From positions 1,736,001 to 1,800,000 of the forward strand of contig OZ234493.1 in NCBI GenBank assembly GCA_965153455.1: a stretch of DNA of 64,000 bases. The letters run 5' to 3'. Under the pieces are notes generated by a model. It saw only the letters and a program-made list of their open reading frames with translations, did no database searches and was not told the origin of the DNA. This DNA comes from Sphagnum compactum. Its lineage: Eukaryota. The translations under genes and the position numbers were made by a program. Below are positions 1 to 44,500 of this stretch, piece by piece (position 1 is the first letter of the stretch; each line of letters begins with the position of its first letter).

Positions 1-562
1 ATCTCTCTCGCTCCCCCGACCCTCAGCCCTAAGTTCGTAAGAGTTCGAAAACTGCGACCTCCCGAGTCCCCTGCGCCACATGCAAAGCAAGACACTCTCA
101 ATTTCCTCCCAAATCCGTCGTCGTCGTTGTCGTTGCAAGAGTGATTTCAGTAGCGATTTTCAGGATTCCAAAGTGACATAATGTTGTACTCTTGTGTGTC
201 TGAGTTTCTGGATATTAGCGCGAGGTTTTAGAGGAATTCCAAAAACTCTGTTTGAAACAACTAGAGTCCCTACCTTAGACTCTCGCTGGAGAATCATTCT
301 TGAGGAGACACTAGACTCGTCGCGTAGAACGAATAGCTGCGAGACCTGTTTCTGTTTTTCTTTTGCAGCTTTAGATTGGGACAACGTTGCCAAAATTTTC
401 AGTTATCTGATCAATCGCAGAGAGACTTGGGTTGGTGAGATTCTCGTGAGATTTTGAGATCAGTAGCTGACAAAGACGAACTTTGGTTGACCAGTGCAGA
501 GATTTTCGCGAGATTGTGAGAGCAGCTTCTGTAGCTGACAAACATCGGAGCTCAGCAATATC

Positions 563-2808
563 ATGGCATTAGACATGACAATAAATTCTGGTCCGTTGGA
601 GCATCAGCACGACATGAGAATCAGATCATCGCCGGTGAACAATAATCCTGCATTGTCGAGAAGCTCGATCAAGTCGGTGGAGACTCGGCGGTCAGAGAAT
701 CATGCTGCAATGGTCGCAGCGACCGCTTCTCGTGGATCGGTGCAGCAGCATGGCGGAACGTCGACATGGAGCAGATCACCGGGAATTACGCACAGTACTA
801 CTACAGCATTGTCAAAAAGCTCGATTTCGGTACTACAGACTCGCGGCGGGCGGCCAGCAGCTAGGACTCACGCATTGACGGTAACAGCAGCAACTAGTCC
901 TGGCGCGCTGCAGCATGCAGGCGAAATATTGTCGTCGACATGGAGCAAGCCGGATTCAATGTGGCATCTGGTGAATCTCAAGACCATGAAGCCCGTGAAG
1001 AACTATGAGCAGCTCTCCCGCATCATGCAGAACCTGGGTTGGTCTTTCTATGTGACTCCACAGCGAGACTTGTGGTGTACATGGGGGACTTGTCACCAGG
1101 CTGATGTTCAGCACGCCTGTCTCCCATACCCTGATATCGGTACTCGTAGCCGCTAGCACTTCCCCTACCAGACTGATCACACTCTGCTGAACTTTCCTCA
1201 AGACCCATTTGCTTTTCCTTTGTAAGAGTTCTAGATGTTCCTGGTCATGCATGTCGTCACATTGAGGCTCGTGAAGAATGCAGAGACTGGCTCATGTACA
1301 CATGTTCATGGGTTTAGGGAAGAAATCTGAGGGAGAGATTTGGGGTTTTTCACTTTAACAGGATCTGCGACCAGAGCAGAGCTGAATCGATTTGTAAGAA
1401 AACTGGAGTACGCAGGGCTTGCGGGTATCCTTGGTGTGGAGGCGGGAGAATTGCCAGCAGCTGCCTCACGGCTGAGCGAGGACATCAAAGCCGGAAACGT
1501 TCAAGTATCGCTTGCTGTGAAGGGTACCGATCGGCGGATAGAGACCTTCAAGGATCTTGCCGAGGTAGGCCCAATCGGATGATCTCTCGAGTGCATCTTC
1601 TTTTGTTTTCAGTAAGCTCGAGATTGTGGTACTTGCAAGTTGCGTGCAACAGAGTCGGATCCTTGTGATACATGATGATGGGTTGCGCTGATTCTAGTGT
1701 TGCATGATTGTTGTGAACAAACTGCAGGCACTGGTTGGGAGAGGATGGAGACGAGTGAGTGACAATCACTTCTACAGGTTCGAGAGCAGCCCTGTTACGC
1801 CCATCTGCCATGTGATCTCTGTCATCCACTTGCCTCTCCTGCGAAGCTTCCGGCAAGTGTGTTTGGAGGATCTGGAGAGCATCGTTCGCTTAACTGGATC
1901 TCTTTTCTACCTCCGCTTCAACAATGCTCTCACCATGGACCCAGCTACCCTCTCAGCTCTACAGGTCTCGGAACTTCTCATGTCCTCAATGATCTTGAAC
2001 TGCTTCTATAGATACTAGTGATCACTGCAGGGCCGTAAGAAATTTCCATTTTCGTATACAATTGTTCTCGATTAACGACAGCGTTTCCTTGATATAGATC
2101 AGCAGTATACGATGATGACAACCAGAAGGAAAAAAATATTCCTCAATCTCTTTGTCTGTGATGTATCACGCGCAGATTCACAAGAAAGGAGTAGAGGGTG
2201 AGGAGGCCAGCAGTTTGGACGATGTCTCGGGGAAAAAGGCATTGACCAGGGACGATCTTCGTCTATGGGCACGCATCACAAGAATGTTGAAGAAGTACGG
2301 TACCAACATTACCAGCAACAACTCGCCATCTACTTTGTGTATCCAGCTACTCCCCAGTCACAAGTCTAATGGTGAAGAAGAAGCAACTGTGAAGCTGCAA
2401 GATGTCCAGAGCAACAAAATCAGTGAAGAAGAATTAGTTGGAGCTGCGGGATCAGCAGGTGGAGGAGGAGGAGGAGGAGGAGAGGGGGAGTACTTTGTGG
2501 ATCATGTAAAAGGGAAAAAGGATGTTGGTACATCAGCAGCAGCAAGAGTAGCAGTTGCAATTCGTCATGTTTGGCTATCCTCAAGCATCACAAGAATGGT
2601 GAAAAAGTACAGCACCATTACAGTCCGTAGCTCATCATCTTTTTGTCTACAGCTCACGCATCACAAGAATGCTACAGCAGCAGCAGGAGGAGGAGAAGAA
2701 GCGAACGCATTAGAGAGCAACAAAACGAATGGAGTCGGAATTCCTGGACATAGCGCGGAGGAAGCGGAGGAGAAGCTCGTGAACGAGGGAAAAAAAGGCA
2801 GCGAATGA
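563..2808 (+). CDS. 4-exon gene encoding a ~549-aa protein with two tandem FPF1/FLP1-like domains plus duplicated N- and C-terminal modules (paralog A)
   Basis: Exons 563-1139, 1362-1564, 1728-1964, 2176-2808. All introns are GT..AG with compatible phases (1,0,0), total 1650 nt, no internal stop. Paralog B has the same junctions. Domain 1 LVNLKTMKPVKNYEQLSRIMQNLGWSFY and domain 2 TDRRIETFKDLAEALVGRGWRR...IHLPLLRSFRQ...IVRLTGSLFYLR resemble the FPF1 pattern VxLxTxxVxSYxxLxxILxxLGWxRY...ISLPxDF...IVxxxxxxFxVR. Gene model is high confidence; family call is moderate. Confidence 0.85.
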
Positions 2809-5799
2809 CGAACCCTAGAACAACGCAACGCAAGCAGCTGCTCAACCATGTATATAAATTTTAGGGTTTTAGGCAAAGGATTTGAGGGCTAGAAAAAAAA
2901 CCCCAAAAAAAATCAAAACAAAACAAAACAAAACAAATCTGAGGCACTTCAGATGATCAGTCAGTCATGTGAGTAGTCTATGAAATTTGCTGCAAAGTTG
3001 AGAGGAGAATCTCCCACAAAATGGCTAGGAAAAATACCATAGACAAAATTCAACCTGGCCTTCTGCTTTCATGGCTATTGTAAATGCATTGAAAATAGGT
3101 ACCCGGGTACCTGCTCACAATTTAGGACATTGGGTGGTGATTGATTGATGTTTTTTTTCCCAGTTAGAGACTGTGTGCTCATTGCCAAAAATTTTCCCCT
3201 CTCTTCAGATTGCAAGACTTTTTGGCAATTCAAATTCGGTACTTTCAAGTTGATTTCTCTAGGATGCAACTCCTCCCCACTTCTAAGCAAATGTACTTGG
3301 ATCATCTGTTACAACTCACCACCTAACTACCTATCCTTTTGGATCAGCAATATTTGACATCTTTTTAGTTTGAGTTATTTTTCGCTGGATGCAATACTCT
3401 AAATTAGGACCTCCTTTACAAGGTTTTTTCTTTTCCCACAAATTTTGTTGCTCTTTCCAAAAGCAATTTCGGAAAATCTTGGAAAATCTTTTTTTTTCTA
3501 GTGTAAATTTGACTAACTCTGGAATTTTTTTGGGAAAAATTCGCCAAATTTTCAATATCACAAAATTGACAAAAAAAATTCCCTGCCTTGTGCCCTCCAG
3601 AATCCACTTGCATGTTCTAGACAGAAATGAATACCTACAGCCCTAAAATGAAGTTGGGTGAAAGCACTTAATCCCCGTATGGCAAGCAAGGCATCCCAAC
3701 TCTGCATGTGTTTTCTGTGTGAGACTACTGTGGATGCTCAGGAGAAACTGAAGGACCCAGCTGGGCACATGTGCATACATGCCCCCCATGGCTCCTGGTA
3801 AACTTTAGATGTTTGTGTGTCAGGACGGAATTGGCATTCTGATTCTTCTCCAAAGAACCTGAAATTTCCTGCATCCAGCAATGGACTTAATTGTATAGTT
3901 GTGAAGCAGCATTCAAACAACTCCTAACTTCAGCCTAGAAATTCCATAAACCCTAATGCTGATCTTTAACACTAAATACATGTGTTCAGCAATGCACAGT
4001 ATACACATGGCTGAACGGTTCTCTATGATATTGAAGCTGTTTTGTACTCCCATGGTTCAAGTACTGAATGGGGCTCAAATACGAAGTTTTCCAACATGAA
4101 CAGTGTGTGTGAGACTTAGGGCTGAAAGCTGTGAGTGTACTGATGAAATTCTTGGACACCCAGCATGTAGAATCACAAAGACTGTCATAATTTTGCACAC
4201 AGCAGTGTGGAATAAGTAGTGGTGTACCTTGGAAACCATTTCCTCATCAGAGCCCTTGTGCTATGACCACTATTCCTGCTGGTGATGCTGGACAGTTTGT
4301 CCATTTGGTCCACACAGGCCTTCTTAGCAGCAGCTGTCTCTCATAATTTCACCCTCCTCAAGTTCTGGAATATGGTGCCAGTAGTATTGCATAATGTCTT
4401 GGCATCATCAAGGCTGGGAAAGTATGGTGGCTGAAAGTAAATCTGAGAGAGGGCGTCTGTTCTGAACCTTTGTACTCCCCACTCCCCATGACTGCAATCA
4501 CAAGTTGCTGATAGGAAGAATTAGAACTACGTGACTGCAGCTTCAAGTTTTGCTTGGAAAACTTGCACAAGATGGACAGTGTATATGCCAATGGTCAACC
4601 ATAAGGAGATACAACATGTCTGTAACTGAACATGCATGACAGTGTCTATACCAATGCGTATGATTGAATGTTAGGCGTAAAAAAAAGAATGTGTTTGGTT
4701 TGCTTTCAGCACAAGATCAGGACAAATAAACTCTGGGAAAGCATTAAGACACACAGATCAACATGCTAAGCACACACTTGTTTCTTGCTTCATTTTTTAT
4801 AAGAATGTTTTCAGGATCAGACTCTCATCCTGCCCCACTCTCTAAGCTATTTTAATCCAAGTATTACTTTTTTTTTTTGGCTGTTATATTTTTTCAAATC
4901 TCACTCTCTTGCTGATTAGACCTGTTGAATGTAGAACATGAAGTTTTTCAGATCCACTCAAAAACTCTAATGGAAACAACTCTCTCATGGCGAAAGCAAA
5001 GTTACAACACTTCATGAATTTTGTTGAATGACTCTTTGCAACTTTATTCATTTAGCCAATAAGGTATATTTTGCTCATGACCACTCAAATAAAATCAACC
5101 TCGGTATCTCACATTACTACAAAACAATTCTCTCTCTCAACTTCTTTCACTAAACATAATTTATCCTTTCACAACTTGTTGTTTCTTTCTACTTTACTAA
5201 AATTACTACAAATCATAATTTTTTAAGAGGTTCAAATTGATTAACTTATCATTTTGACTAAATGACATGTAGATTTTGATTAAAGGTCAAGGGCTTGAAT
5301 GACACATTTATTTGTTGATTAATCAACTTAATTATAATGATTTATTTAACTAAATACACATAGTCAAGTTGTATAACTTTTGTCAAACTAGCCAATGGCC
5401 TTCAATCAAGTTGAACATTTAATCAAGATGGTTAATGATTTTTAATCAAGTTGAATATTTAATCAAGATAATCAATGATCTTTAATCAAGTTGAACATTT
5501 AATCAAAATGGCCGATGATCTTTAGTAAAAATAACAAATGATATTTAATCAAGTTGAATAGTTAATCAAGATGGTCAATGATTTTTATTCAAATATGACA
5601 AGGTCCACTACCCTATGTATTTACCTTCTACTTACTCATCCATTTAGTTACTTATTATCCACCCATTCACCTACCCACCTACCTATACCTTTTCACCTAT
5701 GGACATTCATACCTATTTATGCTTTTCACCTTTGTACAACTTACTTACTTACCTACCCACCTACTTACATATTATTTACTTTCCTATTCACCCATTTAT

Positions 5800-10112: not shown

Positions 10113-12294
10113 TCAGCTTTTGTTGTTCTGAGTCTCTACTTGCATCCCTTCAGATTCCTCCCCTTCCTCCTCCTCTTCCACTGCAACCTTTTTGGGATGC
10201 TTGAGCTTTGCACAAAAGGATGATGGGTTGGTTGTCATTGCAGTAGTACTACGGCCGTAAGTCTTCGTCTTCTCCTTCCTCACCATTCTTGTGATGCGTG
10301 ACGACAGCCAATTTACATGAGGAGTCGCAGCAGAAGAGGGAGTGGGTACTGCTTCTTTTTTAACAAGCCCAGCTTCGTCTACAAAAGTCTCCTGCTCTCC
10401 TTTTCCTGCATGTTGTTCGACAGCTAGTACTCCTTCACCGTTTGTGTTTAGACTCTGATGAGCTTGCAGACCGTTCATTGCTGAATGACCACTACTAGAC
10501 TTGTGTTTGTGCGCAAGCAGGATACACAAAGTAGATGGCGACTTGTTGCTGGTGACGGTGGTACCGTACTTCTTCAACATTCTTGTGATGCGTGACCATA
10601 GACGAAGATCGTCCCCGGTCAATGCCTTTTTCCCCGAGTCATGATCCAAGCTGCTGGCCTCCTCACCTTCTACTCCTTTCTTGTGAATCTGCGCGTGATA
10701 CATCACAGACAAAGAGATTGAGGAATTATTTTTACCTTCTGGTTGTCACTGCTGATCCATATCAAGGAACCTGTAAATGCCGTCGTAGATCGAGAACAAT
10801 TGTATACGAAAATGGAAATTTCTTGCGGTCCTGCAGTGATCATTAGTATCTAGAGAAGCTGCTCAAGATTAGTGAGGACATGAGAAGTTCCGAGACCTGT
10901 AGAGCTGAGAGGGTAGCTGGGTCCATGGTGAGAGCATTGTTGAAGCGGAGGTAGAAAAGAGATCCAGTTAAGCGAACGATGCTCTCCAGATCCTCCAAAC
11001 ACACTTGCCGGAAGCTTCGCAGGAGAGGCAAGTGGATGACAGAGATCACATGGCAGATGGGCGTAACAGGGCTGCTTTCGAACCTGTAGAAGTGATTGTC
11101 ACTCACCCGTCTCCATCCTCTCCCAACCAGTGCCTGCAGTTTGTTCCCAACAATCATGCAACAGAAAGAATCAGCGCCGCAACCCATCATGCATGCTGCA
11201 CATGATGGATGCAAGTCTGCTGCACGCAAACTTGTACCACCAGCTCGAACTTAAGATCGAAAAAAAAATGTTCATGCACTGGAGAGATAATCCGATTGGG
11301 CCTACCTCGGCAAGATCCTTGAAGGTCTCGATCCGCCGATTGGTGCCCTTCACAGCCAGCGATACTTGAACGTTTCCAGCTTTGATGTCCTCTCTGAGTC
11401 GTGACCCACGAGCTGCTGGCAAAGCTCCCGCCCCCACATCAAAGACGCCAACAAGACCTGCATACTCGAGTCTCCTTACAAACCGCTTCAGCTCTATCCT
11501 GGTCGCAGCCCCTGTAACAACAACAGCATTCGCAATTTTAATTCCTACAGGTTTCATTTTCACTGATCTTCCGAGAATGAATCTTGATGGCCAATTCTAT
11601 TGTTCTTTCTCTGCATTGATCTTGAGCCTCACTCTTGTGCGGCCGATCTGCAGCATGATGAAAGATGAGAACTACAAAGGATTCTTGAAGGGAAATAGAA
11701 ATCAAGGAAATCTTCTAAGTAGAAGAGTCACGAGAGAATGGGTACAGTACCAATATCAGGGTATGGGAGACAGGCGTGTTGAACATCAGCTTCGTGACAG
11801 GCTCTCCATGTGCACCACAAGTCTCGCTGGGGAGTGACATAAAAAGACCAACCCAGGTTCTGCATGATGCGGGAGAGTTGCTCATAGCTCTTCACGGGCT
11901 TCATGGTCTTGAGATTCAGCAGATACCACGTTCCCGGCTTGCTCCAGTTGCTCATGGCCGCTGTCGACATTCCGCACTGATATTGCTGCTGCTGCTGCAT
12001 CATCGCAGCCAGGCTAGGCCCATGAGCAGCTGCATGAGACTTTACCGTTACTGCCGCTGCATGACGCAGAGTCCCAGGCCGCCCCGGCTGAGTCTTCTGC
12101 AGTACTACGCGGGATGTCGAACTTTTCGACAGACTAGACGTACTGTGGCCGGTTCTTGGCCTGCGCGACCCATGCTGCTGCATCTGTCCAGGCGATGCAG
12201 CTGCAATGTCTACTGCAGGTGATCTAAGTCTCATGCCGTGGTCGTGATCCGATCGACCTGAACTCAATTGAAGCTGGTGGTCTACCACTGCCAT
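10113..12294 (-). CDS. 4-exon paralog B (~520 aa), tandem FPF1/FLP1-like domain protein, convergent with paralog A
   Basis: Exons (minus strand) 12294-11751, 11511-11306, 11133-10897, 10688-10113. GT..AG introns at the same protein positions as paralog A (PDI/G, LAE/A, ALQ/I), total 1563 nt, open. Exon 3 is the same length (237 nt) and encodes an identical peptide. Confidence 0.85.
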
Positions 12295-13106: not shown

Positions 13107-15001
13107 CAGTAGTCTCTCGTTTAAGTACGCAACTTGAACCTCGGAGTTTTGTGCGTACTTTATCGGTAGGTGCGTACTTTAGATGCTCCATTCCCAAATC
13201 GCCTGCGTTTCGCTGCAATGTCGAAGAAACTGACCGGCAAGCGCCTGAATGAGTCCCAGCGCTGCGAGATCATCTCAAAACTGAGCAAGACGAACCCTCC
13301 AAGCAAACGCGCTCTAGCGCGTGAGTACGATGTTAGCGAAAGCGCTATCCGGAAGGTCTGGGAGAAACGAGATTCAATTCTTGAACAATCCGCTTTATTC
13401 TCCGAAGAAGCTAAACAGAAGACCTTCAGAGCTTCAGTTGGACGATTTACCGAACTTGAAGATATGTACATCTGGATTGACAGCATGCGCCGTGCCAAGC
13501 TCCCTGTACTGCCATCTCTCGCCATTGCGAAAGCGAAAAGTATTGCTTCTACATTATCCATTTTCGATTCAGACTTTAAGGCTTCATGGCAATGGCTTAG
13601 TCGTTTCAGGACACGCCGAGGTCTACAGAAAATGCTTCTTCATGGAGAAGGAGATGAGGTTGACAAAAATGACCCAGAATTACTATCAACGTTAGAAGAA
13701 TTATACTCTATCATCGCTCAATACGACCCTGAGAACGTCTACAACATGGACGAGACTGGATTGTTTTTCCGTCTGCTTCCCAGATATTCCATTCTGATGC
13801 CGAACAAGGACATTTCAAGCACTAGAGGCAAAAAGAAAGCGAAAGATCGTGTTTCTCTGATAGTTTGCGCCAACGCAACTGGAACACATAAAATTCCTTG
13901 CATAATGATTGGAAAGCTGAAAGAGCCAGCGGGTATTAAAGACCGACACTGGCCAATTCCTTTTCCAATCAAGCGAAAGCATGGATGGATGTGGAAACCT
14001 GCTGGAAATGGTTCAACGAAGTTTTTGTTCCAGAAGTCAAAAGACGAACAGGACGTCCCGTTCTCTTACTGATGGATAATGCGCCAGGACACTTCGACGC
14101 CTTCGAACGCGACAACATCCGCGTAGTATTCTTTCCTCCGAACTATACCAGCTGGAAACAGCCTTGTGATATGGGAATCATCGCCGCTCTCAAGAAACGA
14201 TACAAATATTTATATTTCAAGGATATCCTCGACTTCTACGAGCTTCACGAGCAGTTAAAGCAACGGAAAAGAGAATTGGGAAAACAACTACAACGAGGTG
14301 CAGCAGGTGTTTCCTACGGAAATCCAGCGCACCTGCTAGATGCCGCAAGCTATGTAAAAGAAGCCTGGGATTCCGTCTCGTCAAGCTCTATCAAAAATGC
14401 ATTCAGTAAGGCGGAGCTCATGAATTTGGAACCGGAACCAAGGGCTGAGAGCGAAAATAACGTCATTGCCACTGAGTTAGCCCAAACCATCGAAAGCTTA
14501 AATTTATCGATCAACCAATCAGAACTGGAAGAATTTGTTCATATTAATGACGAAAGCAATGAAGAATATGTCGCAGCAGTGTTGGAAGACGTCGAAGAGC
14601 TGTTGGAATCGATGAAGATTAATGAAGCAGGGTTTGATGAAGATAGCGATGTTAATCAACCAGAGCAGATTGTCGAGTCACAGGATAGAGTTGAATTTCA
14701 TGGATTTGAGTCTTTGTATAAGTAGATTCTCGATATTGAGGATCAGTTACTCTGCTCTAACGTTCAAACAGAAGCCGAGAGAAGCATTTGACGATCTCAA
14801 AAAATCTTTTGAAGAGTTCCAGGCCAAGGTTCGAGCAGTCGTCCTCAAAGCCAAACGCAAAAAAAAACCAAAACCTGCGCCAGATGACGATTCATGATAT
14901 GTTCCACTGAAAAATGTTGATCCCTAAAAATTTTGTCATAAAATGCGTACTTAACCAGGATGCGTACTTAAACAGGTGCGTACTTAAGTGGGAGGCTATT
15001 G
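13107..15001 (+). mobile_element. Full-length pogo/Tigger-type (Tc1/mariner superfamily) DNA transposon
   Basis: 25-bp TIRs: CAGTAGTCTCTCGTTTAAGTACGCA and, on the right (revcomp), CAATAGCCTCCCACTTAAGTACGCA, with 5 mismatches, all transitions. TA TSD at 13105-13106 and 15002-15003. Subterminal TGCGTACTT repeats at ~13152, 13171, 14944 and 14961. Confidence 0.95.
13218..14910 (+). pseudogene. Disrupted pogo/CENP-B-like DDE_1 transposase
   Basis: HTH (KRALAREYDVSESAIRKV), CENP-B-type FKASWQWLSRFRTR, catalytic motifs VYNMDETGLF, LLLMDNAPGH and QPCDMGII. Frameshift at ~13965, TAG at 14723, further frameshifts at ~14775 and ~14865. Ends in QMTIHDMFH*. Confidence 0.92.
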
Positions 15002-41514: not shown

Positions 41515-44500
41515 TTAAAGCTTTGAACAATCTGCGGATGCCCACCCAATTCGCTGATTCACTCGATCGAAAACCATTTGATGGTTTGCTTGTGCAAGGT
41601 TACCAATGATATTCACAAGCAGTCCAAACTCAGCACTGGGTAATATAGTGAGACAATATGAAGGGGGCTCCAAGTACAAAGATATGTAATTCTCTGGAGC
41701 CAGCACAAAGTGTACAGTTCCATTACCACTTGCATCTATGAAGTGGAATCTAATGGTTGGAAAGTCGTGAATTGAACCCTTTGTCAGGTTGAAGCACAGT
41801 GGAAATATGTCATCTACAGTGTGGTTGACTTGTGGTAAAGTTATCAGCCTCTGAAGTTCCTGCAATCATTTTACATGGAATCAGTCCTTTCATTTACTTA
41901 GTCCTATGCACTTTTGATCTCAATTGTCCATTGTAAAATGGATGCAATTGTAGAGCTTCCCTGGCCAGGGAAAACCAGGACACACCAGCACATTGTGCAG
42001 TATAGATGAGGTGTAGACGTGAAACACCATTTCCTTTGTGTTCCTGTGTCAGAGGAGGTTAATACAAAGTGGTTAGCTATCATGTATAAACCAGTGTTGG
42101 GTGGTTCTTGACTTTTATGAAGAACCTCCAGTTCTTTAAAAAGAATTAGGACCGTTCCAGGTCCACAGAAAAATGGAACCTTTGGTCCAGTTCACATCAT
42201 GTTCTTGAAAAAAATCCATCCATATTCCAATTCTGCTCAAAGGACATGAATGCACTTTTTCTTGTGTCTTTGTAAGTAAGATTTGGTGATGCAATTTTCC
42301 TTTGAACTGGAAGCAATGTATTGGAGAGAACCAAACACCTACAGGCTACTTACTACCTGTGTTCAGCAGTGAGCATCCCCTTTTCTGATTAATTTCGTAA
42401 GTAAGTTAGCCAGCCCAATCCTTGAAATCTGTTTGAGCAAGAGCGGATGAGGACACTAACCTGGGACACAGCAGTGTAAGCAACAGTGTTGAGGAAGGTA
42501 AATGCGCCGCCAGAGTCCCACAAGACGCCACCCGCATGAGTTGTTTTGTTGATGTGGAAAGTGTCTGGTGGGATATTCTTTAACAAGGTACCGTTCACGC
42601 TGATTCCTCTGAGGCCCACGTAATAATGTGGAGAAAACGTTTGGTTGACGATGGGTGTGTAGACCAAGTGGCGATGGAGTTTGAAGCCTTGTGGGCTTCC
42701 CAAGAAGAAGGTGCTCGTATTGGTGGTGGAATAGCTAAAGGGCACCAAGCAGTAGGAGAAAATCTCTGGATAGATGTTCCGCAGCTGGCTAGGTAGAGAG
42801 ATTGGACTTCTGCCAAGACCCAGGATTCCGTCTGCTCCAAAGAAGAAATTGGATTGGTTATGCCCACAACCAAATAACACATTTCGAATGGAAGTGGACC
42901 ATCCGTCTATGTTCGTGACTGTGAGCGTCTCGGACGCCACATTGCCTTGGGTGGTAAGTAACGGAGCGTATGTAATAGAGTATTTACATTCAGAGTCTTC
43001 GCAACTAACTCCAGCAACGTTGGGGTGGTCAATAAGAACCTGATGAAGAGAACATGAGAGATGAGTTTGTTATTAGCTTAGGGGCTCACATCATTGGGCA
43101 TAATTAGAGCTAGTCAGATGGCCCCAACATCTCACGGTAGGTAAGTCCCCAGGATGAGGGCATTACGGGAACAAGGATACCACCAGAGCTGACAGTCGAG
43201 GACCTTGGCTGTCACCTTGGCTAGCCCTGATATTGTGTCGTAGGTAAGGCCCTTGGACAACGAGGGCTTTACCAGAATAAGGGTACTGTCAGAGGCAGCA
43301 GCTGAGGGTGGTACTCGTATTCTGGTTACGGCCTTGTCCTAGGGCCTTTCCAATCCTAAAGCACCACTAGAAAAACACAATAGGAAGGAAGCTTACATTT
43401 GGTACAGACAAACATTTTAAAACGCAAGGTTCCTCGTTGAGGAAGGTAAGATGGTTCCCTGGACAGGAGTGAATCTTTCCTTTTTAAGGTAGCCTTCAAA
43501 TACACCAAGAAATTTCTCGCGGTGCTTTAGGAGACTAAGTACTGAGAAGTTTTCATACCAGGATCACTGGTGTGCAGAGATTCAAAAAAAAAACCTTGCC
43601 AAGTACATGAGGTTGAATATCAAACTAGCATCCGTGTAACGTTACACAAATGATGAATTACCATCTGGAGAATGGTTGTCAAATTGAGATCGATTTTAAG
43701 GAAAATTTGATCTCTTGAGGAGGTCGTTTTCCTAATTTGCAGCTAATAATCCTCGGTAGATATGCTGAGCCAATCTCAAGATCAAACCAGGTGGATGATG
43801 TGGGGCAAAAGTTTCTCGTTAGATGCATTTCGCGTACCTTGCAATAGTTGTCAGTGCACGATCTGTTTCTGTAAGATGAGGACAAGCTGGGATCAAATGG
43901 GGACCCAAAAGGATGAATGATGCATTGGTTGCAAGGCTTGCAATTCAGCCATAACAAGTCGCTTCCGGTATCAATTAAAACAAAGAATCGCTGCGGAGGT
44001 GTGCCAATTGACAGCGCCATCGTGTACTCAGTCAGCAACCCGTACTGAACATACGTTTCGTCTGGTATCACCTGGCTTTCGAATCCTCCATCGAAGGTCG
44101 AGCTCATCAATCGACGAGAGAAGTAATCCCGACGAGCTAAGCTCCTTTTCGCAGCCGCGGCTAACCTTTCAGAATACGAGCTAGTGTTGTAAGCTGCCTT
44201 TGACAATGGCGAATCTGGATGGTCTCTGTGTATCAATGGTGTTCTCAAGACCTGCAAAAGTCAAAAGTACATGAAGGCTCGATCTGCAAGAGATCACTTT
44301 CGACAATTGACTAGCAGTTTCATATCCATTTCTGAAAGCTCCTAACAAAACCAGCTGCCACACTTCGTTATGTACCTTAAGGACAGCAGATGAATCTTCG
44401 GTGGACACCTCAGACTGATCATCTGGGGACCGTGTAGACTCGGGCCAGCTATTGTGCAGCGTTGATGAGCCCGCATGAGAAAGGCTCTGTCCAGCGGAAA

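Follow-up and report, generated by a model that had tools for sequence, protein, structure and literature searches.

The window analysed here is the whole 64,000-nucleotide stretch at positions 1,736,001 to 1,800,000 of contig OZ234493.1 from Sphagnum compactum. Near its start, on the forward strand, lies a four-exon gene (563..2808) that opens with an ATG at 563 and closes with a TGA at 2806-2808; its joined coding sequence (CDS) of 1650 nucleotides (nt) is translated into a protein of 549 amino acids (aa) with zero internal stops. This is a real Sphagnum gene, and we consider it probable that its protein has two tandem alpha/beta domains of ~100 aa, both distantly related to the core of FLOWERING PROMOTING FACTOR 1 (FPF1), and that it represents a new tandem branch, for which a function as a bivalent regulator is tentatively proposed. 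In crops and model plants, flowering time, the elongation of stems and the growth of roots are all influenced by FPF1-like proteins.

The first half of domain 1 comes from exon 1 (563..1139), after a Ser/Thr-rich N-terminus (aa 1 to ~123); its second half comes from exon 2 (1362..1564), together with the first strand of domain 2. Exon 3 (1728..1964), the most conserved exon, encodes most of domain 2, and exon 4 (2176..2808) encodes a C-terminal tail that ends with the TGA stop. The three introns all have GT..AG ends. Intron 1 (1140..1361, 222 nt, phase 1) lies inside domain 1, intron 2 (1565..1727, 163 nt, phase 0) lies inside domain 2, and intron 3 (1965..2175, 211 nt, phase 0) precedes the tail. 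The translation of exon 3 is 96-99% identical to S. jensenii proteins, and the 549-aa protein as a whole is identical to the annotated models of S. balticum (550 aa), S. jensenii (549 aa) and S. troendelagicum (547 aa) at 531, 522 and 516 of 549 positions, respectively. The S. balticum and S. jensenii models have the same three junctions as the gene described here, and the junction of intron 1 is also used by five family proteins (P0104, P0106, P0107, P0005 and P0009).

Contigs of four runs (X1, X3, X13 and X17) were aligned to positions 400..3000 as a check on splicing. In the metatranscriptome run X1, contigs carry one joint across intron 1, from 1138 to 1361 (GT..AG, cut +1, side 115). Two pairs of loose contig ends give the other junctions: those at 1565 and 1726 run on into the beginning of exon 3 and the close of exon 2 (junction 2), and those at 1964 and 2173 into the beginning of exon 4 and the close of exon 3 (junction 3). 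An X1 contig covers 438-1042, and X1 cover is zero inside any of the three introns. This junction support comes from a single RNA run, whose contigs are 90-99% like the window and thus belong to a related strain or species. In X3, the second RNA run, the introns are partly covered at a depth of 2-9, which reflects either unspliced RNA or contaminating DNA. Runs X13 and X17 resemble DNA, with cover across the introns. The region 563..2808 is an intact, transcribed Sphagnum gene. A preliminary description of the locus, made from its sequence alone, had proposed this four-exon, 549-aa gene, with domain 1 spanning intron 1 and domain 2 spanning intron 2, and had named RNA as the check on its three junctions; the open CDS and GT..AG introns, the annotated models in three Sphagnum species, the coordinates of the domains, and the joint and loose ends in X1 bear it out.

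With the exon 3 translation as query, a word-index search found no proteins other than those of Sphagnum (5 of 147 candidates at E<=0.01), and these share the junctions of the gene. A wider family emerged from a HMMER search of 1.84 billion representative proteins with a three-sequence Sphagnum profile (E<=1e-3), the 15 matches comprising 8 Sphagnum-type pieces, 6 distant relatives and 1 unrelated protein. The latter, P0023 (1444 aa, amino-acid-transporter-like), matched only on 31-residue stretches and was set aside. Five of the 6 distant relatives (210-410 aa) span both halves of the core. The named relatives come from Marchantia polymorpha (MPTK1_7g10050), Riccia fluitans, Riccia sorocarpa and four Sphagnum species, namely S. 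jensenii, S. balticum and S. troendelagicum, with proteins of 547-550 aa, and S. magellanicum (CY35_06G116100). All are labelled hypothetical, uncharacterized or unnamed, save for one automatic UniRef name that is apparently spurious. The two-domain core is common to all full-length members, and in an 11-sequence alignment it is colinear, with 30 invariant columns over ~190 core positions. As judged from these searches, the family is small, with members in Sphagnum and in the liverworts Marchantia and Riccia alone; other mosses and hornworts are not among the HMMER matches, an absence that is not established by a Sphagnum-only profile. Liverwort members lack the long Ser/Thr N-terminus and the repeated tail of their Sphagnum relatives.

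Two of the Riccia fluitans proteins, P0017 and P0024 (R1flu_012388 and R1flu_012389), have adjacent locus tags, and three more paralogues are found on one other contig. The family seems to have grown by local duplication in liverworts as in Sphagnum. A divergent piece of 115 aa that contains domain 2 only (P0019, from a 40-kb contig) matches the Sphagnum profile with E 8.8e-14, and may be a further paralogue or derive from another moss. Pfam searches with the exon pieces and the full-length relatives gave nothing above the cut-off, a result that is uninformative because Pfam is without an FPF1 model (AtFPF1 and FLP1 likewise get no Pfam family). In the ESM Atlas, residues 70-275 of P0009 had no usable match; Marchantia P0018 gave feature scores of 0.87 (<0.9) and structure TM-by-query values of 0.25-0.31, the Atlas model having a predicted local distance difference test (pLDDT) value of 0.35.

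An FPF1 reference was assembled by scanning metagenome contigs with a degenerate pattern of two FPF1 motifs. This gave 94 loci, against a chance expectation of ~0.01 by rough arithmetic, and the reference set consists of 47 distinct, uninterrupted open reading frames (ORFs) of 100-124 aa. All five ORFs that were looked up exactly bear FPF1-family names (FPF1_ARATH, FLP1 (AT4G31380), FLP2, and the grass FPF1-like 3/4 and 5). The Arabidopsis FPF1 segment on which the domain assignment had originally been based is genuine, being present in the ORF named FPF1_ARATH. The GVWVF motif occurs in 47/47 reference ORFs though it was not a selection motif. On one angiosperm contig, two canonical FPF1-like genes lie 3.2 kb apart (L032:1493-1792 and L032:4999-5307).

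Domain 1 occupies 932..1495 on the forward strand (coding segments 932..1139 and 1362..1495) and was assigned by hhalign, BLASTP and tblastn; its best-matching block, at 968..1051, reads LVNLKTMKPVKNYEQLSRIMQNLGWSFY. In hhalign comparisons with FPF1, the whole-family profile gives a probability of 96.3 and E 1.9e-9 over 37 columns, and domain 1 on its own (8 sequences) gives a probability of 97.1, P 5.1e-11 and a score of 63.0 over 87 columns. The match is found with either lineage, at probability 97.2, P 3.7e-11 and score 63.1 (76 columns) for liverworts only, and at probability 93.1, P 3.2e-7 and score 42.9 (71 columns) for Sphagnum only. Controls were 150 column shuffles of the FPF1 alignment and the reversed FPF1 profile. 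None of the shuffles reaches 63.0 (mean 12.4, sd 2.7, maximum 21.3), and the reversed profile scores 13.8. Direct comparison agrees with this, AtFPF1 being matched by BLASTP at 12/28 ungapped identities with the S. jensenii 549-aa protein (E 4e-5, single comparison) and at 15/34 identities with Riccia P0022 (E 4e-9). When the 47 FPF1 ORFs were compared with the 64-kb window by tblastn, the four best matches were to domain 1 of this gene and of the second paralogue described below. An FPF1 hidden Markov model (HMM) gives one match on domain 1 (10-25 bits) in all 13 full-length members, with liverworts (19-25 bits) nearer to FPF1 than Sphagnum (10-12 bits). Domain 1 keeps the central block of FPF1, LVHxPxxEVxxSYxxLExxLxxLGWERY, save for W-E-R-Y, in place of which LGWSFY or LGWKVF is found. 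These profile and pairwise comparisons show domain 1 to be related to the FPF1 core well beyond chance; both the ungapped match to FPF1 claimed in the preliminary description and the profile check suggested there have held up.

Domain 2 (1496..1925, forward strand; coding segments 1496..1564 and 1728..1925) was assigned by hhalign and from an AlphaFold2 model of a Riccia homologue. A profile of 8 sequences aligns to FPF1 with a probability of 72.4, P 3.3e-5 and a score of 31.5 over 77 colinear columns, and a profile of all 13 sequences does so with a probability of 62.6, P 7.2e-5 and a score of 29.8, again over 77 columns. Shuffles give a mean of 11.4 (sd 2.3, maximum 19.1), with 0/150 reaching 31.5, and the reversed FPF1 profile scores 11.7. 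The FPF1 HMM places a second match on domain 2 in 13/13 full-length members. Retained in the alignment are the G-W that follows helix 1, the hydrophobic strand with P after it, and the final F.L/F.V strand. When searched as a regular expression, the hydrophobic strand followed by L/I/M-P is present in domain 2 of 13/13 members and in domain 1 of 6/8 liverwort members, at low alignment confidence. A relationship of domain 2 with FPF1, weaker by sequence than that of domain 1, is supported by these alignments and by the predicted models, and we infer common descent of domain 2 with FPF1.

AlphaFold2 models were obtained for Riccia P0017 (11 sequences, mean pLDDT 59.5) and for FLP1 (47 sequences, mean pLDDT 75.7). 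In the P0017 model, domain 2 has a pLDDT of 76-94, with strand 115-118, helix 128-137, strands 147-152 and 161-166, helix 178-187 and strand 192-195. The FLP1 model begins with an N-terminal hairpin (strands 3-7 and 13-17) and a disordered linker, after which the core comprises strand 44-48, helix 58-67, strands 70-72, 82-87 and 93-97, helix 105-114 and strand 119-123. The order of elements is the same in the domain 2 model and the FLP1 core (strand, helix, three strands, helix, strand), and the predicted helices of P0017 domain 1 (23-33 and 77-87) have the spacing seen in FLP1 and domain 2. When each model was aligned to 48,161 PDB representatives (P0017 as residues 112-196), the same five chains took ranks 1-5 for both. 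Four of the five (4p78_D, 5yrz_D, 6g26_E and 1whz_A) are HicA/YcfA-like proteins with an alpha-beta-beta-beta-alpha, dsRBD-like core, which stand among the closest structures to the FLP1 model and to the Riccia domain 2 model alike. Domain 2 is predicted from these models to have an FPF1-like core fold, at the superfamily level. No solved FPF1 structure was found, because searches of PDB sequences with the FPF1 and family alignments as profiles gave nothing significant. A complex prediction for two copies of FLP1, made without controls, scored 0.00 and has no bearing on dimerisation either way. We rejected a reading of the whole core as one FPF1 domain interrupted by an insertion, since the two halves align independently to the same columns of FPF1 and domain 2 alone folds as a complete core in the predicted model.

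The likeness of the 549-aa protein to FPF1 is concentrated in the central block, a strand followed by x-x-E/x-V-x-S-Y-x-x-L-x-x-I/L-x-x-L-G-W, which is strong in domain 1 and weak in domain 2; a further likeness is that neither has a known catalytic motif or a Pfam model. In other respects the two differ. Canonical FPF1 proteins are single-domain proteins of 100-124 aa encoded by an uninterrupted ORF (47/47), whereas the 549-aa protein is encoded by four exons with introns inside both domains, and has two tandem cores, extra W-rich loops in domain 1 and long flanks. Its host is a bryophyte; the preliminary description, which was made without knowledge of the source, had rightly expected a non-flowering plant. 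Canonical FPF1 carries LGWERY and MYD[IV]V blocks, and the 549-aa protein is without WERY or MYD; the C-terminal blocks D-L-I-S-L-P-x-D-F and M-Y-D-[IV]-V-V-K-N-x-N-x-F-x-V-x-D of canonical FPF1 are likewise not conserved in it. MYD[IV]V is found in 0/13 family members compared with 47/47 FPF1 ORFs, the latter by construction of the search pattern. Canonical FPF1 also begins with an invariant M-S-G-V-W-V-F…G..R-L hairpin, the expression G[VIL]W[VIMFL]F being matched in 47/47 FPF1 ORFs. In the Sphagnum and liverwort family it is matched in 0/13 full-length members and in none of the four exon translations, in agreement with the absence of GVWVF reported in the preliminary description. An alternative hhalign path sets the end of domain 1 on the N-terminal hairpin of FPF1, with a probability of just 49%. 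Because it has no GVWVF hairpin, and because the gene is long and contains introns, the 549-aa protein is a distant tandem-domain branch of the FPF1-like superfamily and not a canonical FPF1.

Canonical FPF1 also occurs within 11 long (>217 aa) angiosperm proteins (9 single sequences and 2 five-sequence clusters), among which 5 are joined to an unrelated Pfam domain of the carrier, reductase, EF-Tu or endonuclease type. A Smallanthus model of 250 aa resembles the tandem cores described here in having two FPF1 copies in one polypeptide; unlike the conserved tandem core, it consists of two near-identical full FPF1 genes joined by read-through. Merged two-copy models such as P0118 are explained by tandem FPF1 gene pairs. 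The long angiosperm models look like annotation merges, and no conserved multi-domain FPF1 architecture was seen among the 11.

Outside the core, the N-terminal 125 aa of the Sphagnum protein are rich in Ser, Thr and Ala (S+T fraction 0.28) and look disordered. The C-terminal tail is basic and acidic and contains an internal duplication, with repeat A at 2215..2418 and repeat B at 2497..2724 on the forward strand, the latter delimited by self-alignment of exon 4. Repeat A has the pattern …W.RITRMLKKY.T.IT…S.S..C.QL..HK…, and the self-alignment of the exon 4 translation scores 69, which 0/1000 shuffles reach (mean 28.5, maximum 59). A basic tail motif, …ITRM.KKY…C.QL..HK, is common to the second paralogue and is also present in P0005. 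In contigs from X1, X13 and X17, position 2348 is joined directly to 2571, which leaves out 222 nt with AC..GT ends; the shorter side of the joint has 32 letters. This joint is not due to splicing, because it is also seen in the DNA-like runs; its probable source is an allele or relative in which the tail repeat has one unit fewer, or an artefact of repeat collapse. Just 5' of the gene, at 438..474, contigs of the same three runs have 20-21 extra letters and a 36-37-nt duplication, which is structural variation in the 5' region among Sphagnum accessions.

The second paralogue (10113..12294) is located ~7.3 kb away on the reverse strand, in a convergent, tail-to-tail orientation. It is intact and encodes 520 aa from exons 12294..11751, 11511..11306, 11133..10897 and 10688..10113, with the same two-domain core and tail repeats. 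S. jensenii P0005, which is identical to it at 490/519 positions, is its orthologue. The two paralogues form inverted repeats, in which the arm containing exon 3 and flanking intron (1698..2086 versus 10775..11163) is 96% complementary and other arms are 80-91%. The difference between this arm and the others suggests local gene conversion around exon 3. About 0.9 kb upstream of the start codon of the paralogue, two overlapping ORFs at 13170..14725 (forward strand) with CENP-B_N, HTH_Tnp_Tc5 and DDE_1 domains represent a pogo/Tc5-type transposase broken by a frameshift. Further along the window, ORFs at 42389..44260 on the reverse strand contain TAXi_N, TAXi_C and Asp domains, and correspond to an aspartyl-protease-like gene of the xylanase-inhibitor type.

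A number of observations weigh against the presence of two FPF1-related domains. The reference set contains angiosperm-type sequences only, WERY and MYD having been the motifs used for its selection; the family has no GVWVF hairpin; and the HMMER search of the whole protein library with the Sphagnum profile found zero canonical FPF1 proteins at E<=1e-3. Profiles of domain 2 from a single lineage match FPF1 poorly, with a probability of 23.5, P 8.6e-4 and a score of 24.3 over 76 columns for liverworts only, and a probability of 6.9, P 5.2e-3 and a score of 20.2 over 72 columns for Sphagnum only. Because these scores are near the shuffle maxima (~19-21), domain 2 is convincing with the combined profile only; the FPF1 HMM scores there are just 1-9 bits. 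When compared with each other by hhalign, the two domains align colinearly and weakly (probability ~20, P ~0.001, score 23.6, 73-79 columns), and the score of a plain self-alignment is reached by 22 and 36 of 500 shuffles. Domain 1 is poor in the P0017 model (pLDDT 32-62), and of its fold only the spacing of the two helices can be read. The likeness of the two models was assessed by proxy, through their alignments to PDB chains; the PDB matches in common have middling Z (<8), and a Foldseek search of the PDB gave nothing at E<=1e-3 for the FLP1 model or the P0017 model. Of the checks that had been proposed at the outset, profile comparison of domain 2 with FPF1 gave a score above all 150 shuffles with the combined profile and scores near the shuffle maxima with single lineages, and modelling reproduced the FLP1 element order in domain 2 but yielded neither a confident domain 1 nor a PDB match by Foldseek.

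If only domain 1 stemmed from an FPF1-like ancestor, and domain 2 were an unrelated small alpha/beta domain with the common dsRBD- or HicA-like arrangement, there would have been no true tandem duplication. This appears unlikely, given that the combined profiles of domain 2 score 29.8-31.5, which 0/150 shuffles reach, and that domain 2 can be aligned in order along the full length of the FPF1 core, with its G-W, its strand before P and its closing F.L/F.V strand retained. Moreover, domain 2 shares with the FLP1 model both its order of elements and its five best PDB chains, and in 13/13 members it receives the second match of the FPF1 HMM. That the FPF1 likeness is altogether a product of chance or convergence in an unrelated, bryophyte-specific family is very improbable. 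Such an origin would fit the lack of any Pfam or named-family match and of anything usable in the ESM Atlas, and the failure of library-wide searches to find FPF1, both with HMMER and in a word-index search with the family profile, which returned no FPF1-named protein at E<=10; the latter search is non-exhaustive, as the query member Marchantia P0018 was missed too. However, the missing Pfam match says nothing where Pfam is without an FPF1 model, and chance would have to account for a domain 1 hhalign P of 5e-11 with shuffled and reversed controls far lower, for BLASTP E values of 4e-9 and 4e-5, and for the finding that domain 1 of both paralogues provides the best tblastn matches of the FPF1 ORFs in 64 kb. 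A tandem pair of FPF1-related domains is the reading we prefer.

As to what such a pair might do, one paper (PMC11092471) describes FPF1 and FLP1 as small proteins without a known functional domain, and names rice RAA1/ACE1 and Brachypodium FPL1/FPL7 as members of the family. In the same paper, FLP1 is stated to bind many transcription factors, WUS included, and Brachypodium FPL1 and FPL7 to block formation of the florigen activation complex and attenuate DNA binding by FD1 through protein-protein interaction (PMC11092471). By analogy with this binding of transcription factors, the double core might consist of two protein-binding modules joined covalently, a bivalent unit that would modulate transcription factors in the gametophyte, and the tail and N-terminus could serve localisation or regulation. 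We put forward a bivalent, protein-binding unit of this kind only tentatively, and regard it as on balance doubtful. A covalent pseudo-dimer or scaffold, as suggested in the preliminary description, is a putative arrangement only. Alternatively, and with the identity of the protein left as it is, the predicted folds might indicate that the FPF1-like domain binds nucleic acids as a HicA- or dsRBD-like module, in which case the tandem protein would bind RNA (or DNA) and not transcription factors; the chance of this is small. A wider proposal, which we consider a long shot, is that the FPF1 domain is an ancient land-plant HicA-/dsRBD-like module that was originally tandem or dimeric, as kept in Sphagnum and liverworts, and that seed-plant FPF1 is a reduced, single-domain derivative that must pair or bind nucleic acid.

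What is new here is the FPF1 relationship and the family; the sequences themselves had been deposited before in public databases, under unnamed or hypothetical labels. The architecture, which the preliminary description had called apparently undescribed, lacks a family name in the records seen and a Pfam model, and is not found in the papers searched. Among literature main texts, no mention of Marchantia Mp7g10050 was found, although supplementary gene lists could name it. Nor did the main texts contain a link between FPF1 and bryophyte proteins or between FPF1 and HicA, and a paper on tomato brassinosteroid (BR) had no passages on bryophytes or the domain.

The family offers a new and modestly surprising handle on the biochemistry of the FPF1 domain. 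As natural variation, it marks the residues that are essential to the core, such as those of the helix that closes with G-W and of the strand preceding P. The predicted HicA/dsRBD-like fold in common provides a testable lead on what the FPF1 domain binds. MPTK1_7g10050 is a target for studies of function in Marchantia, a tractable model bryophyte. Should the FPF1 domain indeed be an ancient tandem module, the bryophyte proteins would expose the long-unknown biochemical activity of FPF1. The presence of a tandem relative in non-flowering plants suggests that the fold is older than flowers, or at least not tied to flowering.

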